A stretch of 60,158 nt of DNA from Bacteroidota bacterium (GTDB taxonomy: Bacteria; Bacteroidota; Bacteroidia; Bacteroidales; B18-G4). Shown here one piece after another: positions 3,137-60,158 of the stretch (position 1 is the stretch's first letter; the number at the start of each line of letters is the position of its first letter). Below the pieces are notes generated by a model. It was not told the origin of the DNA, did no database searches, and saw only the letters and a program-made list of their open reading frames with translations. The stretch is taken from positions 1 to 60,158 of the forward strand of contig JABMQZ010000235.1 in NCBI GenBank assembly GCA_013202965.1. The letters are read 5' to 3'. The position numbers and the translations under genes are program-made.

Positions 3137-3193
3137 CTGGCTCGTCACAGACGAGCAGCTATCGGGCACGCGTTGCAAACGCGCGCCGGCTGT

Positions 3194-3335
3194 GTGCAGT
3201 ATCAGACGTTTGCAACTCCCCAGCTAGCGCACGACCGCTTGCTAGCGCGCGATTGCATCGCGTGCAGTATCAGGCGTTTGCAACTCCCCAGCTAGCGCAC
3301 GACTGCTTGCTATCGCGCGATTGCATCGCGTGCAA
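3194..3335. repeat. 68-bp tandem duplication (two full units plus about 6 nt of a third), rich in CGCG mini-palindromes
   Basis: Unit 1 (3194-3261) and unit 2 (3262-3329) both read GTGCAGTATCAG(A/G)CGTTTGCAACTCCCCAGCTAGCGCACGAC(C/T)GCTTGCTA(G/T)CGCGCGATTGCATCGC, with 3 mismatches. A third copy of ATTGCATCGCGTGC sits at 3391-3404. Confidence 0.9.
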
Positions 3336-3420
3336 ACATTACAGCGCGTTTGTAACGCGCAATAACCCTTAATAACTTGGCATACGCACAATTGCATCGC
3401 GTGCCCGTCTTTTAATATTT

Positions 3421-3490
3421 GAATTTTGAAATCTGGAGTTTTTTGGGATTTTGGTTCCTGGATTTTGGTTCCTGGAGTTTGTTTTTCCCC
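3421..3490. repeat. Heptamer-periodic word array (10 units), including TTTTGGT TCCTGGA x2
   Basis: In phase: GAATTTT GAAATCT GGAGTTT TTTGGGA TTTTGGT TCCTGGA TTTTGGT TCCTGGA GTTTGTT TTTCCCC. Confidence 0.8.
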
Positions 3491-5486: not shown

Positions 5487-5552
5487 ACGATTGAACGATT
5501 GAACGATTGAGCGATTGAGCGATTGAACGATTGAACGATTGAACGATTTTGC
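5473..5552. repeat. Octamer tandem array GATTGA(A/G)C x10, overlapping the stop codon of the preceding gene
   Basis: Units start at 5473, 5481 ... 5545 in the pattern (AAC)3 (AGC)2 (AAC)3, with degenerate first and last units. The TGA stop of the acetoacetyl-CoA synthetase gene (5484-5486) lies inside unit 2. Confidence 0.95.
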
Positions 5553-5573
5553 GATGTATAATAAATATTTTAT

Positions 5574-7202: not shown

Positions 7203-7331
7203 CTAATTTTCTGTGACGATCAGCTTTCCTGCAGTAATAATGCCTGGTTCAGAAACCACCCTGTAATAATAAATGCCTGCGTGCAGATCACTAAGTCTGT
7301 GATGATCTGTAAGGGTAAAGGAAGTAATTTA
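7203..7331 (-). pseudogene. Relic of a T9SS C-terminal sorting domain: only the last ~40 codons, with no start codon
   Basis: The minus-strand frame reads ITSFTLTDHHRLSDLHAGIYYYRVVSEPGIITAGKLIVTEN*. The stop is TAG (plus CTA at 7203-7205). LxDLxxGIYYYRV...GKLIV is the canonical end of a T9SS type A sorting domain. An in-frame TAA at 7329-7331 closes it, and only about 70 nt remain before the next gene. Confidence 0.5.
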
Positions 7332-7404
7332 ACACTCAAAATTTAAAATTCAACACCCAACATTGTCCGCCGAAGCTTTAGCGTAGGTGGAACACTTAAA
7401 ACTC
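7331..7404. repeat. Heptamer word array interrupted by a conserved hairpin core (core 7362-7390, minus orientation)
   Basis: Left flank AACACTC AAAATTT AAAATTC AACACCC AACATTG. Core GTCCGCCGAAGCTTTAGCGTAGGTGG. Right flank AACACTT AAAACTC. The same word type occurs on both sides of the core. Confidence 0.8.
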
Positions 7405-9824
7405 TATTCATATTTAATCGCATTCACAGGGTTAGAAGATGCTACCTTGATAATATGGAAGCTGATACTGAGCATTCCTACGGCAAGTGACATCACTCCT
7501 CCAAGAATAAATGCGAATACCCCAATCTCAATATGAAATGCAAAATTTTCAAGCCACAGGTCCAGTACATACCATGCAACAGGAATGGCAAGAATAAAAG
7601 CAATTCCGATCAGGATGGCAAACTCTTTGTAAAGCAGCCTGATGATGTTGGCCATGGAAGCCCCAAAGATTTTCCTGAGGCCAATCTCTTTTGTACGTTG
7701 TTCGGCAATGAAAGATGAAAGTCCCAAAAGCCCGAGCAAGGCAATGAATATGGTTAGCATGGTGGCGATACTGAAGATCATCCCAAGGTTCTTTTCCGCC
7801 GTATACATTTCATCCCATGTTTCTTCAAGAAAACGATAGTTAAAGGGCCTGTTAGCACCAAAATCATTCCATTTTTCTTCAATGAAATCAATGGTTTCGC
7901 GCAAATTTTCGCCATTGATCCTTATACTTAAATCGCTTTTATTGAAATCAGCCATGAACATCATTTGCTTTTGGACCTTGTTATGCAGGGATCTGAAGTG
8001 GTAATCTTCAATTACCCCGATTACCTTCATCTTCCGGCCTCCACTGCCATCCAGTTCAAAACCCCAGTGTATGGTCTTTCCGATGGGATCATCTTCCCAG
8101 TCGTAAGTTTTTACCAGTGTTTCGTTTACGATCACAGCTTCCTCAGCATCCGTTCCCATGTTTTCGTCGAAAAACCTTCCCTGCTTTAGTTTAATATCAT
8201 ATAAGTCAAAATAATGATAATCGACAATGGTGATGATGCTCGCCTCATCGATCCAGCCGGTGTCTTTTTCCATCCTCACTACCTGTATCCAATTATTTCT
8301 GCCAGGAATACCTATTGAGTTTGTAACCCCAAGGATGTCAGGATTTTGTAACAATTCCTCACGAAACATAGGTGCTTTTGCTCTGAAAGCACTGTCCTGT
8401 AATTCCAGGATCATCATGTTTTCCATGTCAAAACCGAGGTCTTTATTCCTCAGGTAAGATAATTGTTGTGAAACGATGATGGTTCCAATGATCATTGCCG
8501 TGGCGATAAAAAACTGGAAAACCACCAGGATCTTTCTAAGTATACCGCTTCCTCCGGTTTTGGAAACAGCCCCTTTCACTACTGTTACAGGGTTAAAAGA
8601 TGAGAGGTAAAATGCTGGGTAGCTTCCTGAAATAATACCTATGATCGTAGCAATAATAATGATACCAATGATGAAGACAGGATTCAGGAAAATATCGTAA
8701 GTCACGCTTTTCCCGGCCAGCAGATTAAAATCAGGTAATAATAAATAAACAAAGGCCACAGCAATTACCAGCGAGATATAACTTAGCATAAGAGATTCGC
8801 CAAGGAACTGCCTGATAAGTTGTCCTTTGTAAGCCCCGGCGACCTTTCTGATACCTACTTCCCTTGCCCGTTTGGTAGAGCGTGCAGTTGCCATATTCAT
8901 ATAATTAATAGCGGCAATAAGCAGAATAAACATAGCTATAGCAATGAATATTAATATAAAAGCTTTGTTTCCTTTCGGCTGATCAGATGAAAGATTATCT
9001 GAAAAATGCTGTTCTGTCAATGGTGTAGACATCAATTCATAACCGGCATTGATCTGATCACCGATATCTCTCATATATTTATCATAGAACTCCGGAAACT
9101 TCTCATGAATACTTCCCATGTTGCTATTTTCATTAAGCATGAGGTAGGTGTATACGCCTATATTCCAGAATCTTGCGGGCTCCATGCTGTTGAATTCCTC
9201 TTCACCGGCTTCTGCGGCCAGGGTCGTTCCAGAGATCAGGGCATCAAACCTTAAATGAGAATTGCTTGGTACGTCTTCTATTACCCCGGTAACTTTGAAC
9301 TGCCTGCCGGATCCTGACTCAAGGATCTTCCCCATCGGGTCTTTATCGCCAAAATACTTTTCAGCAATTGATTTTGTAAGCACAATGGATAAAGGCTCAA
9401 CAAGGCACCTGTCCGGGTCTCCCATGATCATCTTATGGGTAAATACCTGAAAATAGGTGGAATCGGTGAAATAAAAATCTTCCTCATAAGATTCTTTCTC
9501 TTCGTTCCTGAACAAGGAGTTCCCTGCTCCAAAAATCCTGACGACAGATTCTACCTCCGGGTATTCCAATTGCAGTGCCGGTCCCATTGGGATCGGAACT
9601 ATCGCAAACAGTTCATCTTTCCCGGCAATGGTAAAGTTGGATTCGATACGATGAATTCTTGAAGCATTTTCATGATATTTATCGTAAGATCTTTCATCAT
9701 TTATGTATAAAAACAAAAAGATGAAAGCAATTAATCCCACAGATAATCCGAGGATATTCAGGAATGAATAAAACTTATTTTTTACAATATTCCTGAATGC
9801 GCTTTTAATATAATTACTAATCAT
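7404..9824 (-). CDS. ABC transporter permease, FtsX/MacB family
   Basis: 806 aa. Two 4-TM FtsX-type modules, each preceded by a large periplasmic domain. Paralog of 10661..13072, with the same N-terminus (IKxAFRxxxKxKxYSxxN) and C-terminal tail (NPVxxIKYE). Confidence 0.85.
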   Translation of the reverse strand: MISNYIKSAFRNIVKNKFYSFLNILGLSVGLIAFIFLFLYINDERSYDKYHENASRIHRIESNFTIAGKDELFAIVPIPMGPALQLEYPEVESVVRIFGAGNSLFRNEEKESYEEDFYFTDSTYFQVFTHKMIMGDPDRCLVEPLSIVLTKSIAEKYFGDKDPMGKILESGSGRQFKVTGVIEDVPSNSHLRFDALISGTTLAAEAGEEEFNSMEPARFWNIGVYTYLMLNENSNMGSIHEKFPEFYDKYMRDIGDQINAGYELMSTPLTEQHFSDNLSSDQPKGNKAFILIFIAIAMFILLIAAINYMNMATARSTKRAREVGIRKVAGAYKGQLIRQFLGESLMLSYISLVIAVAFVYLLLPDFNLLAGKSVTYDIFLNPVFIIGIIIIATIIGIISGSYPAFYLSSFNPVTVVKGAVSKTGGSGILRKILVVFQFFIATAMIIGTIIVSQQLSYLRNKDLGFDMENMMILELQDSAFRAKAPMFREELLQNPDILGVTNSIGIPGRNNWIQVVRMEKDTGWIDEASIITIVDYHYFDLYDIKLKQGRFFDENMGTDAEEAVIVNETLVKTYDWEDDPIGKTIHWGFELDGSGGRKMKVIGVIEDYHFRSLHNKVQKQMMFMADFNKSDLSIRINGENLRETIDFIEEKWNDFGANRPFNYRFLEETWDEMYTAEKNLGMIFSIATMLTIFIALLGLLGLSSFIAEQRTKEIGLRKIFGASMANIIRLLYKEFAILIGIAFILAIPVAWYVLDLWLENFAFHIEIGVFAFILGGVMSLAVGMLSISFHIIKVASSNPVNAIKYE

Positions 9825-30054: not shown

Positions 30055-30118
30055 CCACAGTCTCAAAGTCCCACAGTCAAATAGTCTCTTAGTCCCCCAA
30101 TCTCCCAGTCTCTAAACT
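30055..30118. repeat. Octamer word array (8 units), NNNNAGTC on plus and GACTNNNN on minus
   Basis: CCACAGTC TCAAAGTC CCACAGTC AAATAGTC TCTTAGTC CCCCAATC TCCCAGTC TCTAAACT. It abuts and overlaps the sprA stop codon. Confidence 0.9.
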
Positions 30119-38111: not shown

Positions 38112-38232
38112 AAAGCCGTCTGATAATTATTATTACATAAATGTTGCAAATCTAATAAATATAATAAATCCGAATTCACTAAAACTTTATCAACTGATCA
38201 TGGGTTTGTGTATTGAGACGGCGGGGAGCGGG

Positions 38233-38332
38233 GTGACTATGAGACTATGAGACCAGGAGACTGAGGGACCAGCAACCAGTACACCTATGCTAAAGCTTCG
38301 GCGTACGAAGTAACCAGCAACCAGCAGCCAGT
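38233..38332. repeat. Octamer array (38235-38282, GAC(T/C)NNNN) and ACCAGCA/AACCAGC heptamers flanking a conserved hairpin core (38282-38310)
   Basis: Octamers: GACTATGA GACTATGA GACCAGGA GACTGAGG GACCAGCA ACCAGTAC. Core: ACACCTATGCTAAAGCTTCGGCGTACGAAG. Then AACCAGC AACCAGC AGCCAGT. ACCAGCAACCAG occurs on both sides of the core. Confidence 0.85.
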
Positions 38333-43179: not shown

Positions 43180-44592
43180 ATGAAAAATTTTAAGTACTTA
43201 CTTCTTCTCTTTATAAGTTTTGCCCTTGTGATAAGCGCATGTAAAAAAGATGATGATAATGATAATCCGCCTGCGCCTTCAGGTGATTATAAAATAAGCG
43301 GTTACAGCCAGGATGCGATTAGCTTTAGCGGTATTGCCGGAGCCCTGGTCGTTATAACTGATATGAACGGAGCCGCAATAACCCAGGCAACCACTGATGC
43401 TGCAGGTAACTATGTAGTGACCGCTATTGCTCCCGGAACTTATAATATGACAGTTACCAAAGATGGGTATCAGAACCAGATAGCATCAGCTGTGGTAGTT
43501 GGCAATGTTAACATCCCCGATGTGTTTGTTGGCTTCATGCCTGTCGATAATTCAATAACAGTACCGGTAGGCGCCATTTGCGGCATTGTACTCGATGCAA
43601 ACGGAAATCCGGTAGCAAATGCAACCATTGCGATCAGCGCTGAAGATGCGTCATTGACCAACGGATATTTTGCAAGCGGTGTTACTGATGCAATGGGTAA
43701 ATATGCCATTGGAGCCGTGCCTATTGAATCTGCTGTTAGCGGCGGGGTTATCCCGGCATTTAAGATCAAAGCAATTAAAGACAATTTTGTTGATGTAAAA
43801 CATAATGTGAACATCGTTCAGAATTCCCTGGTGGTTGGCAATGTAGACCTTGTCAATCAGAATGTTCCCGGTAATACAGTATTTACAGAAGGTTTTGAAG
43901 CAAAAGCCGAGTGGACATGGGAAGGATTCTGGCATCTGCAGGGGAATGCAAGCATCTTGAACAGCAATGTTACGTCGGAATATGTCAAACTTGCGCCGAA
44001 CGATAATTCTGCAGGATACATTCCCAGTGCCTATGCAGGCATGTACTGTGCATGGTATGGACAGGAATCTACGGGTAGTTTTATTGGTGAAGCTTCAGCC
44101 GGACAGTCGCAGTGGTCAGGCGGTACCAGTACTTCCAGTAATATGGGTACGCTTGTATCACCTCCGGTCGATCTTGCCGGTCTGGACCAGGCCTCGCTGT
44201 CATTCTGGACATGGTTCGAGATCGAAAGTGTGAACCCCAATGCATCAGGCTTTGATATCATGGAAATCTATGTCATTGATGTGGCAACACAGATTGAAAC
44301 TTCCATAGGGAGGCTAAATCCATATAGCGATCCTGTACTTGATGACAGGGCTGCATTGCCTTTCACCTCAGGTGGGTTCAATAAAGCTCCTTTATGGACG
44401 CTTGCTGAATATGACCTTACTGCATTTGCCGGCGCAAACATTCAGCTTAAGTTTGAGTTCAGAACTGTTGACGGCTTGTATAACGGCTTCCGTGGATGGT
44501 TTCTCGATAATGTCCTTGTTACCGACAAAGCTCCGCTGAAATCAATGAACACTAACACAGTATACGGCCCGGACCCAAAACCAAGGGACTAA
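43180..44592 (+). CDS. Lipoprotein with carboxypeptidase-regulatory-like beta-sandwich repeats and a C-terminal jelly-roll-like domain; function unknown
   Basis: Lipobox VISAC. Repeats of the type DAAGNYVVTAIAPGTYNMTVTKDGY. The C-terminal domain ends GFRGWFLDNVLVTDK. Domain names are recall-level inference. Confidence 0.6.
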   Translation: MKNFKYLLLLFISFALVISACKKDDDNDNPPAPSGDYKISGYSQDAISFSGIAGALVVITDMNGAAITQATTDAAGNYVVTAIAPGTYNMTVTKDGYQNQIASAVVVGNVNIPDVFVGFMPVDNSITVPVGAICGIVLDANGNPVANATIAISAEDASLTNGYFASGVTDAMGKYAIGAVPIESAVSGGVIPAFKIKAIKDNFVDVKHNVNIVQNSLVVGNVDLVNQNVPGNTVFTEGFEAKAEWTWEGFWHLQGNASILNSNVTSEYVKLAPNDNSAGYIPSAYAGMYCAWYGQESTGSFIGEASAGQSQWSGGTSTSSNMGTLVSPPVDLAGLDQASLSFWTWFEIESVNPNASGFDIMEIYVIDVATQIETSIGRLNPYSDPVLDDRAALPFTSGGFNKAPLWTLAEYDLTAFAGANIQLKFEFRTVDGLYNGFRGWFLDNVLVTDKAPLKSMNTNTVYGPDPKPRD

Positions 44593-45782: not shown

Positions 45783-45935
45783 AATAAAGAACATGGAATA
45801 ACGAACAAGGAATGAATTTTAGATAATACTTCGAACTTCGTGCCCCCTCCATTCTCGAAGGGGAGCCTGTCCCGCCACAGGCGGGAGGGACAGGGGGTGG
45901 GTAAAAGGAACAAGGAACAAGGAAGAAACCAGAAC
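45783..45935. repeat. Heptamer arrays (45783-45817 and 45901-45935) flanking a GC-rich hairpin block (about 45866-45894)
   Basis: Left: AATAAAG AACATGG AATAACG AACAAGG AATGAAT. Right: GTAAAAG GAACAAG GAACAAG GAAGAAA CCAGAAC. Between them: CCTGT CCCGCC ACA GGCGGG AGGG ACAGG. Confidence 0.85.
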
Positions 45936-45936
45936 A

Positions 45937-50247: not shown

Positions 50248-50303
50248 TCGCTTCTCGATATTCGATATTCGTTTCTCGATATTCGATTCGTGTCTCGATT
50301 CTC
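50248..50303. repeat. Heptamer array (8 units) built on TCGATAT
   Basis: TCGCTTC TCGATAT TCGATAT TCGTTTC TCGATAT TCGATTC GTGTCTC GATTCTC. It abuts the stop codon of the gene ending at 50302. Confidence 0.9.
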
Positions 50304-52588: not shown

Positions 52589-52686
52589 TTGTCGATTGTT
52601 GATTTCGATATTCGTTATTCGATATTCACCTCACCCCCCCCATCCCCCCATCCCCTCTTCCAGCATCCAGCATCCAGCATGCAATT
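52589..52686. repeat. Heptamer word array (14 units) starting immediately after the stop codon
   Basis: TTGTCGA TTGTTGA TTTCGAT ATTCGTT ATTCGAT ATTCACC TCACCCC CCCCATC CCCCCAT CCCCTCT TCCAGCA TCCAGCA TCCAGCA TGCAATT. Confidence 0.9.
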
Positions 52687-59564: not shown

Positions 59565-59725
59565 GTCAGGTATGAGGTACGGGGGACGGGGGACGGGGGA
59601 CGGGGTTAAGGAGTTCCGAGTGCCTAGTTCCGAGTTCCTGGTGAAGAATTTAAGTGTGGAGTGATCAGTATCGAATGTAGAATTCATTTAAAATTTAAAA
59701 TTCAAAACTTAAAACTGCAATTTAC
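59565..59725. repeat. Heptamer word array, 23 consecutive units
   Basis: GTCAGGT ATGAGGT ACGGGGG x3 ACGGGGT TAAGGAG TTCCGAG TGCCTAG TTCCGAG TTCCTGG TGAAGAA TTTAAGT GTGGAGT GATCAGT ATCGAAT GTAGAAT TCATTTA AAATTTA AAATTCA AAACTTA AAACTGC AATTTAC. The periodicity is obvious for units 1-11 and 18-23 and weaker for units 12-17. Confidence 0.85.
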
Positions 59726-59733
59726 TATCTTTG
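59726..59733 (+). promoter_or_regulatory. Candidate -7 promoter box (TAnnTTTG) upstream of tRNA-Arg
   Basis: TATCTTTG lies 104 nt upstream of the mature tRNA 5' end. Confidence 0.3.
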
Positions 59734-59780
59734 CACTCACCTATCGAAAATCGTCAATCACATCGAAAATCGACAACCGA

Positions 59781-59810
59781 CCCGCCTTCGCTAAAGCTAC
59801 GGCGGACAGG
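59781..59810 (+). repeat. Conserved hairpin core (third copy), embedded in ATCGACA-type words
   Basis: CCCGCCTTCGCTAAAGCTACGGCGGACAGG. It aligns with 38282-38310 (+) and 7362-7390 (-) around the invariant GCTAAAGCT. Confidence 0.8.
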
Positions 59811-59837
59811 CAATCGACAATCGACAATTTCCGAATG

Positions 59838-59910
59838 GGCCCCGTAGTTCAATGGATAGAACGTCAGATTCCGGTTCTGAAGGTTGTGGGTTCGACTCCC
59901 GCCGGGGTCA
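59838..59910 (+). tRNA. tRNA-Arg (anticodon CCG)
   Basis: Hand-folded cloverleaf. Acceptor GGCCCCG/CGGGGTC, D arm GTTC-AATGGATA-GAAC, anticodon arm TCAGA-TTCCGGT-TCTGA, variable AGGTT, T arm GTGGG-TTCGACT-CCCGC, discriminator A. No encoded CCA. Confidence 0.9.
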
Positions 59911-59950
59911 CAAAATCAAATAGCCGCTCTCGAGCGGCTATTTGATTTTG
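59911..59950 (+). terminator. Perfect 19-bp hairpin immediately after the tRNA (putative terminator or processing structure)
   Basis: CAAAATCAAATAGCCGCTC TC GAGCGGCTATTTGATTTTG. The 3' arm is U-rich. Confidence 0.6.
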
Positions 59951-60028
59951 TCCTTCTCCTATCTTATATCGCCTTCACCCATCGCCTTCTATTGTTGGTA
60001 AGAGTGTCCAAATTTCAATCAAATGATT

Positions 60029-60141
60029 CCTCGTGGCTTTCCGCGAGGTTTCCTAATAAGCTCCCCTGATTTTCAGGGGAGATGTGCCGCTTTTGCGGGA
60101 CAGAGGGGTATTATAAAAATCTGGTTCCGCCTTTGGCGGAA
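60029..60141. repeat. Cluster of four short hairpins with T-rich 3-5 nt loops
   Basis: CCTCGTGG-CTTT-CCGCGAGG (60029-60048). CTCCCCTG-ATTTT-CAGGGGAG (60061-60081). CCGC-TTTT-GCGG followed by GACAG (60087-60104). TTCCGCC-TTT-GGCGGAA (60125-60141). Confidence 0.8.
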
Positions 60142-60158
60142 TGAAATTGGGTTAATAC

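Follow-up and report, generated by a model that had tools for sequence, protein, structure and literature searches.

A REP-like palindrome family of probable selfish character, found in the word arrays of a Bacteroidota contig and in many other bacterial phyla

Three short hairpins in the spacers of a Bacteroidota contig are probably diverged members of a widespread family of REP-like palindromes of about 30 nt that persist as selfish single-strand-DNA hairpins. That the three copies in the window (the entire 60,158-nt stretch of DNA analyzed here) are dispersed REP-like repeats added secondarily to tandem word arrays is well supported and very likely. The behavior of the family is best read as that of selfish or mobile DNA, not as that of a gene-linked RNA signal, because its copies are scattered in any orientation through spacers, along the flanks of tRNA and tmRNA genes, and in frame within genes, and because their presence is patchy among relatives.

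The window has a G+C content of 43%, encodes SprA of the type IX secretion system, carries TAnnTTTG-type -7 boxes, and is represented in freshwater and sediment metagenomes. Its three hairpins lie where the initial annotation had put them, as a check of the sequence and a covariance model both bear out; their limits were set by the family logo. The copy at 59781-59810 (c59, plus strand; CCCG-CC-TTC-GCTAAAGC-TAC-GG-CGGA-CAGG; 46.5 bits with the covariance model) sits between fbaA and tRNA-Arg(CCG), in the predicted leader of the tRNA, which starts 27 nt downstream and occupies 59838-59911 on the plus strand (an Rfam tRNA match). The copy at 38280-38309 (c38, plus strand; (G)TACA-CC-TAT-GCTAAAGC-TTC-GG-CGTA(C)-GAA; 34.8 bits) lies in the divergent ruvA/maeB-pta spacer, and that at 7362-7391 (c7, minus strand; TCCA-CC-TAC-GCTAAAGC-TTC-GG-CGGA-CAAT; 44.4 bits) lies in the convergent lnt/macB-ftsX spacer, starting 12 nt past the stop codon of the minus-strand gene 7404-9824. 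All three copies are intergenic, and they differ in sequence among themselves, so there is no sign of recent activity in the window. Outside the element, TATCTTTG at 59727-59734 (plus strand), conserved in the closest orthologous locus, is assigned as a promoter box on the strength of TAnnTTTG, the known -7 box consensus of Bacteroidota; box, c59, and tRNA-Arg follow one another in that order, just as first described. Contig depth in metagenomes is raised 5-20x over the hairpins, and 10-20x over 38255-38328 (c38) in four metagenomes, a pile-up that is expected for a repeat.

Similar words stand on both sides of each copy, as the initial annotation had noted: AACCAGC-type words at 38.3 kb, AATCGAC-type words at 59.8 kb, and AACACTYAAAAYT, found on either side of c7, at 7.4 kb. 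Upstream of c59, a heptamer array of the ATCGAAA/ATCGTCA/ATCGACA type fills 59742-59780 (plus strand) of the tRNA-Arg leader and continues downstream at 59811-59832 (plus strand) with two copies of AATCGAC. Arrays of GGCGGGGA, GAGACTAT, and ACCAGCA precede c38 (38215-38279, plus strand), and an AACCAGC array follows it (38310-38331, plus strand); c7 has an AACAC/AAAAT word stretch on one side (7330-7361) and a related word, AACACTTAAAACT, on the other (7392-7404). The array beside c38 is polymorphic in length, a related strain having a 44-nt deletion of 38223-38266.

The heptamer arrays appear from sequence comparison to be the older feature, conserved in place, to which the element was added secondarily. 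A metagenome scan with FbaA as the query yielded 80 related Bacteroidota loci (377 kb in all), and a convincing copy of the element was found in none of them. The closest of these loci, L122, whose FbaA is 86% identical, keeps the fbaA/tRNA-Arg(CCG) order and the TATCTTTG box and has (ATTGACA)n heptamers arrayed in its tRNA leader; this leader lacks the hairpin. Compared with it, the leader in the window holds 49 extra nt, which comprise additional words and the element, and the boundary of the insertion within the array is approximate because even the best relative is only 86% identical at the protein level. Since the L122 leader has the array without the hairpin, the element was added to an array that already stood there rather than giving rise to it, although the difference could possibly reflect a deletion in the relative.

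Of the two origins first offered for this arrangement, insertion into the arrays is therefore supported, and seeding of the arrays by the hairpin is not. We consider seeding very improbable, even though similar words lie on both sides of every window copy, one locus (L095) repeats element and words jointly in tandem, and some viral contigs (L217, L230) present the same picture. The words vary from locus to locus and are not derived from the element, many arrays in the window lack a hairpin, and a flanking tandem array of 6-9-nt words accompanies only 3-5% of family copies elsewhere, as against about 1% of random sites; the array without a hairpin in L122 largely refutes the idea.

Word arrays are common in this DNA, also in spacers that hold no copy of the element. 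Tandem arrays of 7-8-nt words take up many spacers in the window (5487-5560, 30060-30116, 50255-50301, 52589-52680, 45783-45936, 59570-59720, and 3400-3490), and the words include ACGATTGA in eight copies, GACGGGG in four, ATTCGAT, and CCAGCAT. L122 has arrays at the same positions, sometimes built from other words, such as GGGTACC where the window has GACGGGG. On viral contigs, L217 and L230 (one IMG/VR contig) and L212 carry full-length copies of the element inside arrays of AATATTC or GGCAGAA words.

Could the three hairpins merely resemble one another by chance, as GC-rich palindromes? Short hairpins of this kind are common, and two weak matches to the covariance model, at 45863-45893 and 60118-60148, have just the stem in common with the family; still, the data already exclude this reading, to which we give a negligible probability. 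The 9-mer GCTAAAGCT occurs four times in the window, against 0.34 expected, a number reached by none of 100 shuffles. Its fourth occurrence, at 43321-43329 on the minus strand, lies within the open reading frame (ORF) 43180-44592 and has surroundings without similarity, and we therefore attribute it to chance. With filters off, the covariance model recovers exactly the three copies in the window, with E values of 1e-7 to 4e-5. Positions that were left free by the pattern used to search other genomes are conserved as well among the matches listed, with C at -3 in 109 of 122 copies, C at -2 in 115, C at +5 in 117, and G at +21 in 100.

Searching beyond the window, as the initial annotation had proposed, brought out the motif in many phyla. 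A scan with the pattern CCTNNGCTAAAGCTNCGGCG of a 596-Gb collection, one genome per species, gave at least 120 loci in more than eight phyla; by our own calculation, about 70 chance matches to this pattern are expected in the entire collection. Among the matches listed are Alphaproteobacteria (including isolate genomes of Bradyrhizobium and Maricaulis), Bacteroidota (including the isolates Terrimonas and Flaviaesturariibacter), Acidobacteriota, Patescibacteria (CPR), Verrucomicrobiota, Planctomycetota, Nitrospirota, and others, and a family model built from the listed copies picks up further members with a differing apical part. The family consensus is tCCGCC-TNC-GCTAAAGC-TNC-GGCGGa-CAAG, and the logo resolves a 30-nt unit, [T/C]CCG-CC-TNC-GCTAAAGC-TNC-GG-CGG[A/G]-CAAG, whose 5' edge is sharp and whose 3' tail fades. 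Carrier loci have about one additional copy per 20 kb, and the window has three in 60 kb. The family is also carried by 44 uncultivated viral contigs (46 matches, 31 of them full-length); a screen of 5,426 E. coli genomes did not turn it up, nor did PLSDB plasmids or INPHARED phages yield any genuine match. Six matches to Thermus plasmids were rejected as chance identities of 22/23 within coding sequence. A full-text literature search with the DNA core and the encoded peptides returned no match.

Inverted dimers with a sister hairpin occur in Acidobacteriota and Bradyrhizobium loci and in L229, and none occurs in the window. In Acidobacteriota and Bradyrhizobium, this sister hairpin, with the apical part GCCAAGGC (ccgcc-gaa-gccttggc-gaa-ggcgg), is often the immediate neighbor of an inverted GCTAAAGC form, and such neighbors form REPIN-like doublets and triplets (L009, L025, L003, L046, L023, L024, L037, and others).

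The element folds into a 6-bp basal stem, a 3x3 internal loop, an apical stem of 2-3 bp, and a small loop, which replaces the 10-bp stem drawn at first. The internal loop, TNC/TNC on one strand and GNA/GNA on the opposite one, is conserved as non-pairing. Covariation had been proposed for the outermost pair and for "pair 7," and the two fared differently. At the outermost pair, which lies outside the search pattern, T-A (43 copies), C-G (39), G-C (6), and U.G (9) are found among the matches listed, and the covariation score of 0.109, compared with 0.053 in shuffled alignments, was reached by none of 500 shuffles. The presumed pair 7 falls in the center of the internal loop. Of 122 copies among the matches listed, 31 have T.T there, 31 T-A, 13 A-T, 11 C.T, and the rest other combinations, and because it is mostly mismatched it is not a maintained pair. 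With its pairing backed by the test on the outer pair, the element is a genuine small hairpin-forming repeat, as originally claimed.

The core GCTAAAGCT, thought invariant from three copies, varies in the wider family; apical variants seen include GCCAAGGC, GCTGAAGC, GACAAAGTC, GCCCTTCGGGC, and GCTTGCTTCGCAAGC, and 61 of 277 variants are self-complementary over at least 2 bp, as against 19.6 in shuffles, which lends the hairpin further support. The two commonest, GCTAAAGC and GCCAAGGC, differ by a compensatory change from T-A to C-G, and both encode Ala-Lys-Ala because the changed bases fall at third codon positions in the commonest insertion frame. The tail at +23 to +26 reads C/T, A/C/G, A/G, and G/A with 0.26-0.55 bits per position, CTTG-like on the other strand. 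Whether taken as RNA or as DNA, the GNA strand has a somewhat more stable fold than the TNC strand; the energies are ordinary, z-scores ranging from +0.9 to -2.0. That the internal loop is kept mismatched across phyla suggests that it is a folded single strand that matters, and not a symmetrical duplex site.

Placement was counted at loci with less than 55% G+C, where simple ORF calling is reliable. Spacer classes are about evenly occupied (12 same/same, 10 divergent, 9 convergent, and 8 opposite/opposite), and no orientation bias toward flanking genes was found over these four classes. About 23 of 75 copies (about 30%) lie inside long ORFs, a figure that includes the copy in L035, an apparent chance match. 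Insertions into coding sequence are in frame; either orientation occurs, all four stop-free frames are used, and the genes hit include those for ValRS, LigA (in two organisms), Tgt (in two organisms), ThyA, TrmD (twice), RlmN, HsdM, a SpoU methyltransferase, a radical-SAM protein, and others. In the sense orientation, the element encodes ..SFAKATAGK.. or ..PPSLKLRRT.., and in the antisense orientation, ..AEALAKAG.. or ..RRSFSEGG... Against solved homologs of ThyA and TrmD, the repeat-encoded residues appear as gaps of 6-9 amino acids, and SpoU homologs at 70-80% identity do without the repeat-encoded segment. The flanks had been suggested to behave as target-site duplications; when checked, direct repeats at the limits of the element did not exceed chance. 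In CPR SpoU/TrmH methyltransferases (alignment A4, P0001-P0120), two hypervariable hot spots of insertion hold inserts of which some resemble products of related hairpins (LLRQGYGGQ, GGSAFGGK) and others resemble translated word arrays (NSKQVPNSKLQIQNS); from these, short repeat-derived inserts seem to be common in CPR proteins.

A tRNA or tmRNA gene lies within 100 nt of 18 of 126 copies, where random placement in the same loci gives 2.0; with a null model restricted to spacers, about 11 are expected and the enrichment is about 1.6-fold by our own estimate. Eight copies abut or overlap the end of a tRNA gene, at either end and in either orientation. At tRNA-abutting copies (L004, L050, L116, L102, L057, L028, L118, L048, L083, and L051), the terminal 3-6 nt of the tRNA also serve in the basal stem of the hairpin, namely GCGGG/CGGG at the 5' end and ...CCGCC or CCA at the 3' end, and in two unrelated cases the stem CCAGCC/GGCTGG begins exactly at the CCA of the tRNA. 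At L048 757-900, from a Rikenellaceae metagenome-assembled genome, two copies bracket tRNA-Ala beside tRNA-Ile, one oriented alike and immediately upstream, the other inverted and immediately downstream; this pair of tRNA genes is in an arrangement typical of the 16S-23S rRNA spacer.

A transcript-level hairpin at tRNA or mRNA ends is the main rival to our reading. A structured RNA element of this sort would act as a processing, stability, or termination signal in transcripts such as the tRNA-Arg leader or the macB-like 3' UTR. The covariation of the hairpin, some changes on the GNA strand that are compatible with G.U pairing, the position of c59 in a predicted tRNA leader and of c7 just past a stop codon, and the proximity to tRNA and tmRNA genes would all fit such a role, yet we hold it to be unlikely. 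Copies show no orientation bias relative to flanking genes or tRNAs and occupy both strands of coding sequences; the orthologous tRNA-Arg leader of L122 works without the hairpin; fold z-scores are ordinary; and the tRNA enrichment dwindles under the intergenic-only null. Searches of Rfam 15 in gathering and E-value modes returned the tRNA as the sole match in the window and nothing in eight carrier loci. The same absence of orientation bias, occurrence of both orientations in coding sequences, and lack of an Rfam match speak against reading the motif as a strand-specific small RNA. Only one metatranscriptome shares words with the region, and it leaves the hairpin uncovered. Two narrower RNA candidates were also set aside. 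An intrinsic terminator was rejected, there being no orientation bias and no T-run behind any window copy (the copies are followed by ACAGGCAATC, ACGAAGTAAC, and ACAATGTTGG), and mimicry of a K-turn, loop-E, rRNA, or tmRNA was dropped, the motif being symmetrical and having no match in E. coli, which carries all universal RNAs.

How might a selfish DNA hairpin of this size spread? The strand on which the initial annotation wrote the motif coincides with the local G-rich strand in 72 cases versus 37 (p = 0.001), the direction expected if that strand is exposed on the lagging-strand template, with a bias that is modest and confounded by gene orientation. This skew, the lack of target duplication, and the analogy with known mobile hairpins lead us to suggest, tentatively, that the copies may act and move as folded single-stranded DNA that is copied in trans by an HUH/Y1-type enzyme, a possible mechanism that falls well short of a probable one. 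The active form would be the folded single strand, as the conserved mismatched internal loop hints; the lagging-strand template would present it, and its duplication in trans would fall to an HUH/Y1-type (RAYT-like) enzyme or to another single-stranded DNA process encoded elsewhere. In this genome, the older heptamer arrays to which copies were added secondarily would be permissive "junk" spacers. A tblastn search with 12 RAYT/TIRYT query sequences found no homolog in 1.68 Mb of window and loci, none was seen among 18 window proteins scanned, and no transposase was linked to the element. A shared neighbor gene was sought by all-against-all clustering of 3024 ORFs from carrier loci and rejected, the clusters being just response regulators and ABC transporters; in L036, two copies enclose a housekeeping ORF that resembles threonine dehydratase.

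The hairpin could instead be a host-recruited DNA structure or protein-binding site, kept for chromosome organization or replication and not spread, by analogy with E. coli, where binding of gyrase, IHF, and Pol I has been reported for REP/BIME clusters. Conservation of the basal stem and internal loop across phyla and the orientation bias with GC skew are consistent with such a site, as is the fact that four Bradyrhizobium species (L037, L043, L072, and L073) have kept the element at orthologous positions. We nonetheless think it quite unlikely: presence is patchy between relatives, the insertions into essential genes are at places where such a role is implausible, and the half-sites are asymmetrical as duplex DNA. 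The last point, together with conservation of the mismatched loop, argues against a classical dimer operator, and we know of no binding protein for the element.

Mobile, selfish DNA remains our preferred reading. Against it stands the reach of the family: a core that is nearly the same in one phylum after another, tiny CPR genomes among them, fits poorly with the co-evolution of REPs and RAYTs, which so far is known only within lineages. A bolder version, which we rate as rather unlikely, is that most bacterial phyla, reduced CPR genomes included, harbor one and the same active family of mobile hairpins, its core of 26-30 nt nearly unchanged, and that this family has no transposase of its own. 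It would rely for its copying on a general single-stranded DNA process at the replication fork or on some widely shared enzyme, would prefer the feet of structured DNA (tRNA gene ends and other hairpins), and would routinely remodel surface loops of essential enzymes.

Other repeats share the window. A stretch of about 110 nt at 60012-60123 has three small hairpins, CTCCCCTGATTTTCAGGGGAG, GTGCCGCTTTTGCGGGAC, and TTCCGCCTTTGGCGGAA, the last of which has a TCCGCC/GGCGGA stem in common with the element; in the metagenomes containing this genome, contig words over this stretch reach a depth of 800-2500, against 7-13 around it, and the stretch is on that account a very high-copy repeat, far commoner than the element represented by c7, c38, and c59. 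Between the genes for acyl-CoA dehydrogenase and acetyl-CoA synthetase, a GC-rich block at 3137-3400 contains a unit of about 100 nt twice and several GCGC-type palindromes (GCGCGTTGCAAACGCGC, GCGATTGCATCGCGTGC). At 45830-45900, nested GC-rich hairpins (CCCCCTCC...GGAGGG; GTCCCGCCACAGGCGGGAGGGAC) are surrounded by GGAACAA word arrays, and the inner hairpin matches the element model weakly (16.8 bits, E 0.19) because it shares a CCCGCC/GGCGGG stem.

For annotation, these hairpins should be masked as repeats and not called small RNAs, riboswitches, or terminators, and the peptides FAKATAGK, PSLKLRRT, AEALAKAG, and RRSFSEGG in many metagenomic proteins should be recognized as repeat-encoded insertions. 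For a REP-like element the family has an uncommonly wide range, and no mobilizing enzyme was found for it; its abutment of tRNA ends and frequent in-frame insertion into essential genes of CPR bacteria make it a good handle on how very small palindromes spread. Since copies are present on viral contigs, it may also show how such palindromes cross phyla.

Several known systems resemble the family in part. Elhai and colleagues reportedly described in 2008 cyanobacterial SDR elements, hairpins of 21-27 nt with compensatory changes that often lie within heptamer STRR arrays. The tiny hairpins nested in heptamer arrays of our window recall these, a likeness of context, by description, but the phylum is another one, and the association of our family with arrays is local rather than general. 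Rickettsia palindromic elements (RPE), which Ogata and colleagues are said to have reported in 2000 and of which the classic RPE-1 reportedly measures about 100-150 nt, are likewise selfish palindromic DNA tolerated in frame in conserved protein genes, to which they add a short surface peptide. Our element, in contrast, has 30 nt instead of about 100-150 nt, occurs in many phyla instead of Rickettsia alone, and in the window lies outside genes in every copy, although family members elsewhere are in frame. RPE-4 and RPE-6 have been classed as CGTC REPs (PMC3733652). Unlike a MITE, the element has no target-site duplication at its limits.

In IS200/IS605 and REPIN-RAYT systems, the hairpin is recognized as folded single-stranded DNA, target duplication is absent, insertion is biased to the lagging-strand template, and inverted doublets occur; REPIN-RAYT pairs are lineage-specific and vertically inherited (PMC3116915, PMC3479197). 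The present family shares with IS200/IS605 elements and REPs the lack of a target-site duplication, and with IS200/IS605 and REPIN-RAYT the inverted doublets and a skew bias of the lagging-strand-template type, whereas its core is common to many phyla and a cognate enzyme was not found. In REP families, non-complementary di- or trinucleotides separate the stem from a small loop flanked by GC, and there is a short tail; the families form inverted dimers, occur in distant phyla, and sit in frame within genes, tRNA synthetase and DNA ligase genes among them (Di Nocera et al. 2013, PMC3733652). The GTAG-3/GTAG-14 architecture comes closest to ours: REPs are imperfect palindromes of 20-40 nt with a GC-rich stem of 6-9 bp (PMC3733652), and our 30-nt element with its 6-bp stem falls within these ranges, having likewise mismatched trinucleotides inside, GC residues around a small loop, and an unpaired short tail at one end. 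The family, like REPs, comprises singletons and inverted dimers, inserts in frame into genes, and recurs in distant taxa (PMC3733652). It departs from REPs in its tail, which is CAAG (CTTG on the other strand), weakly conserved, and neither GTAG nor CGTC; in its lack of preference for sites downstream of ORFs, the four spacer classes being about equal; in an intragenic share that is much higher in low-GC genomes, at about 30%; in having no RAYT near it in the 1.68 Mb of window and loci; and in its encoded peptides, which match none in the supplement of PMC3733652. The CGTC REPs, too, have no known dedicated transposase. We file the family as a REP-like kind that stands outside the GTAG and CGTC superfamilies.
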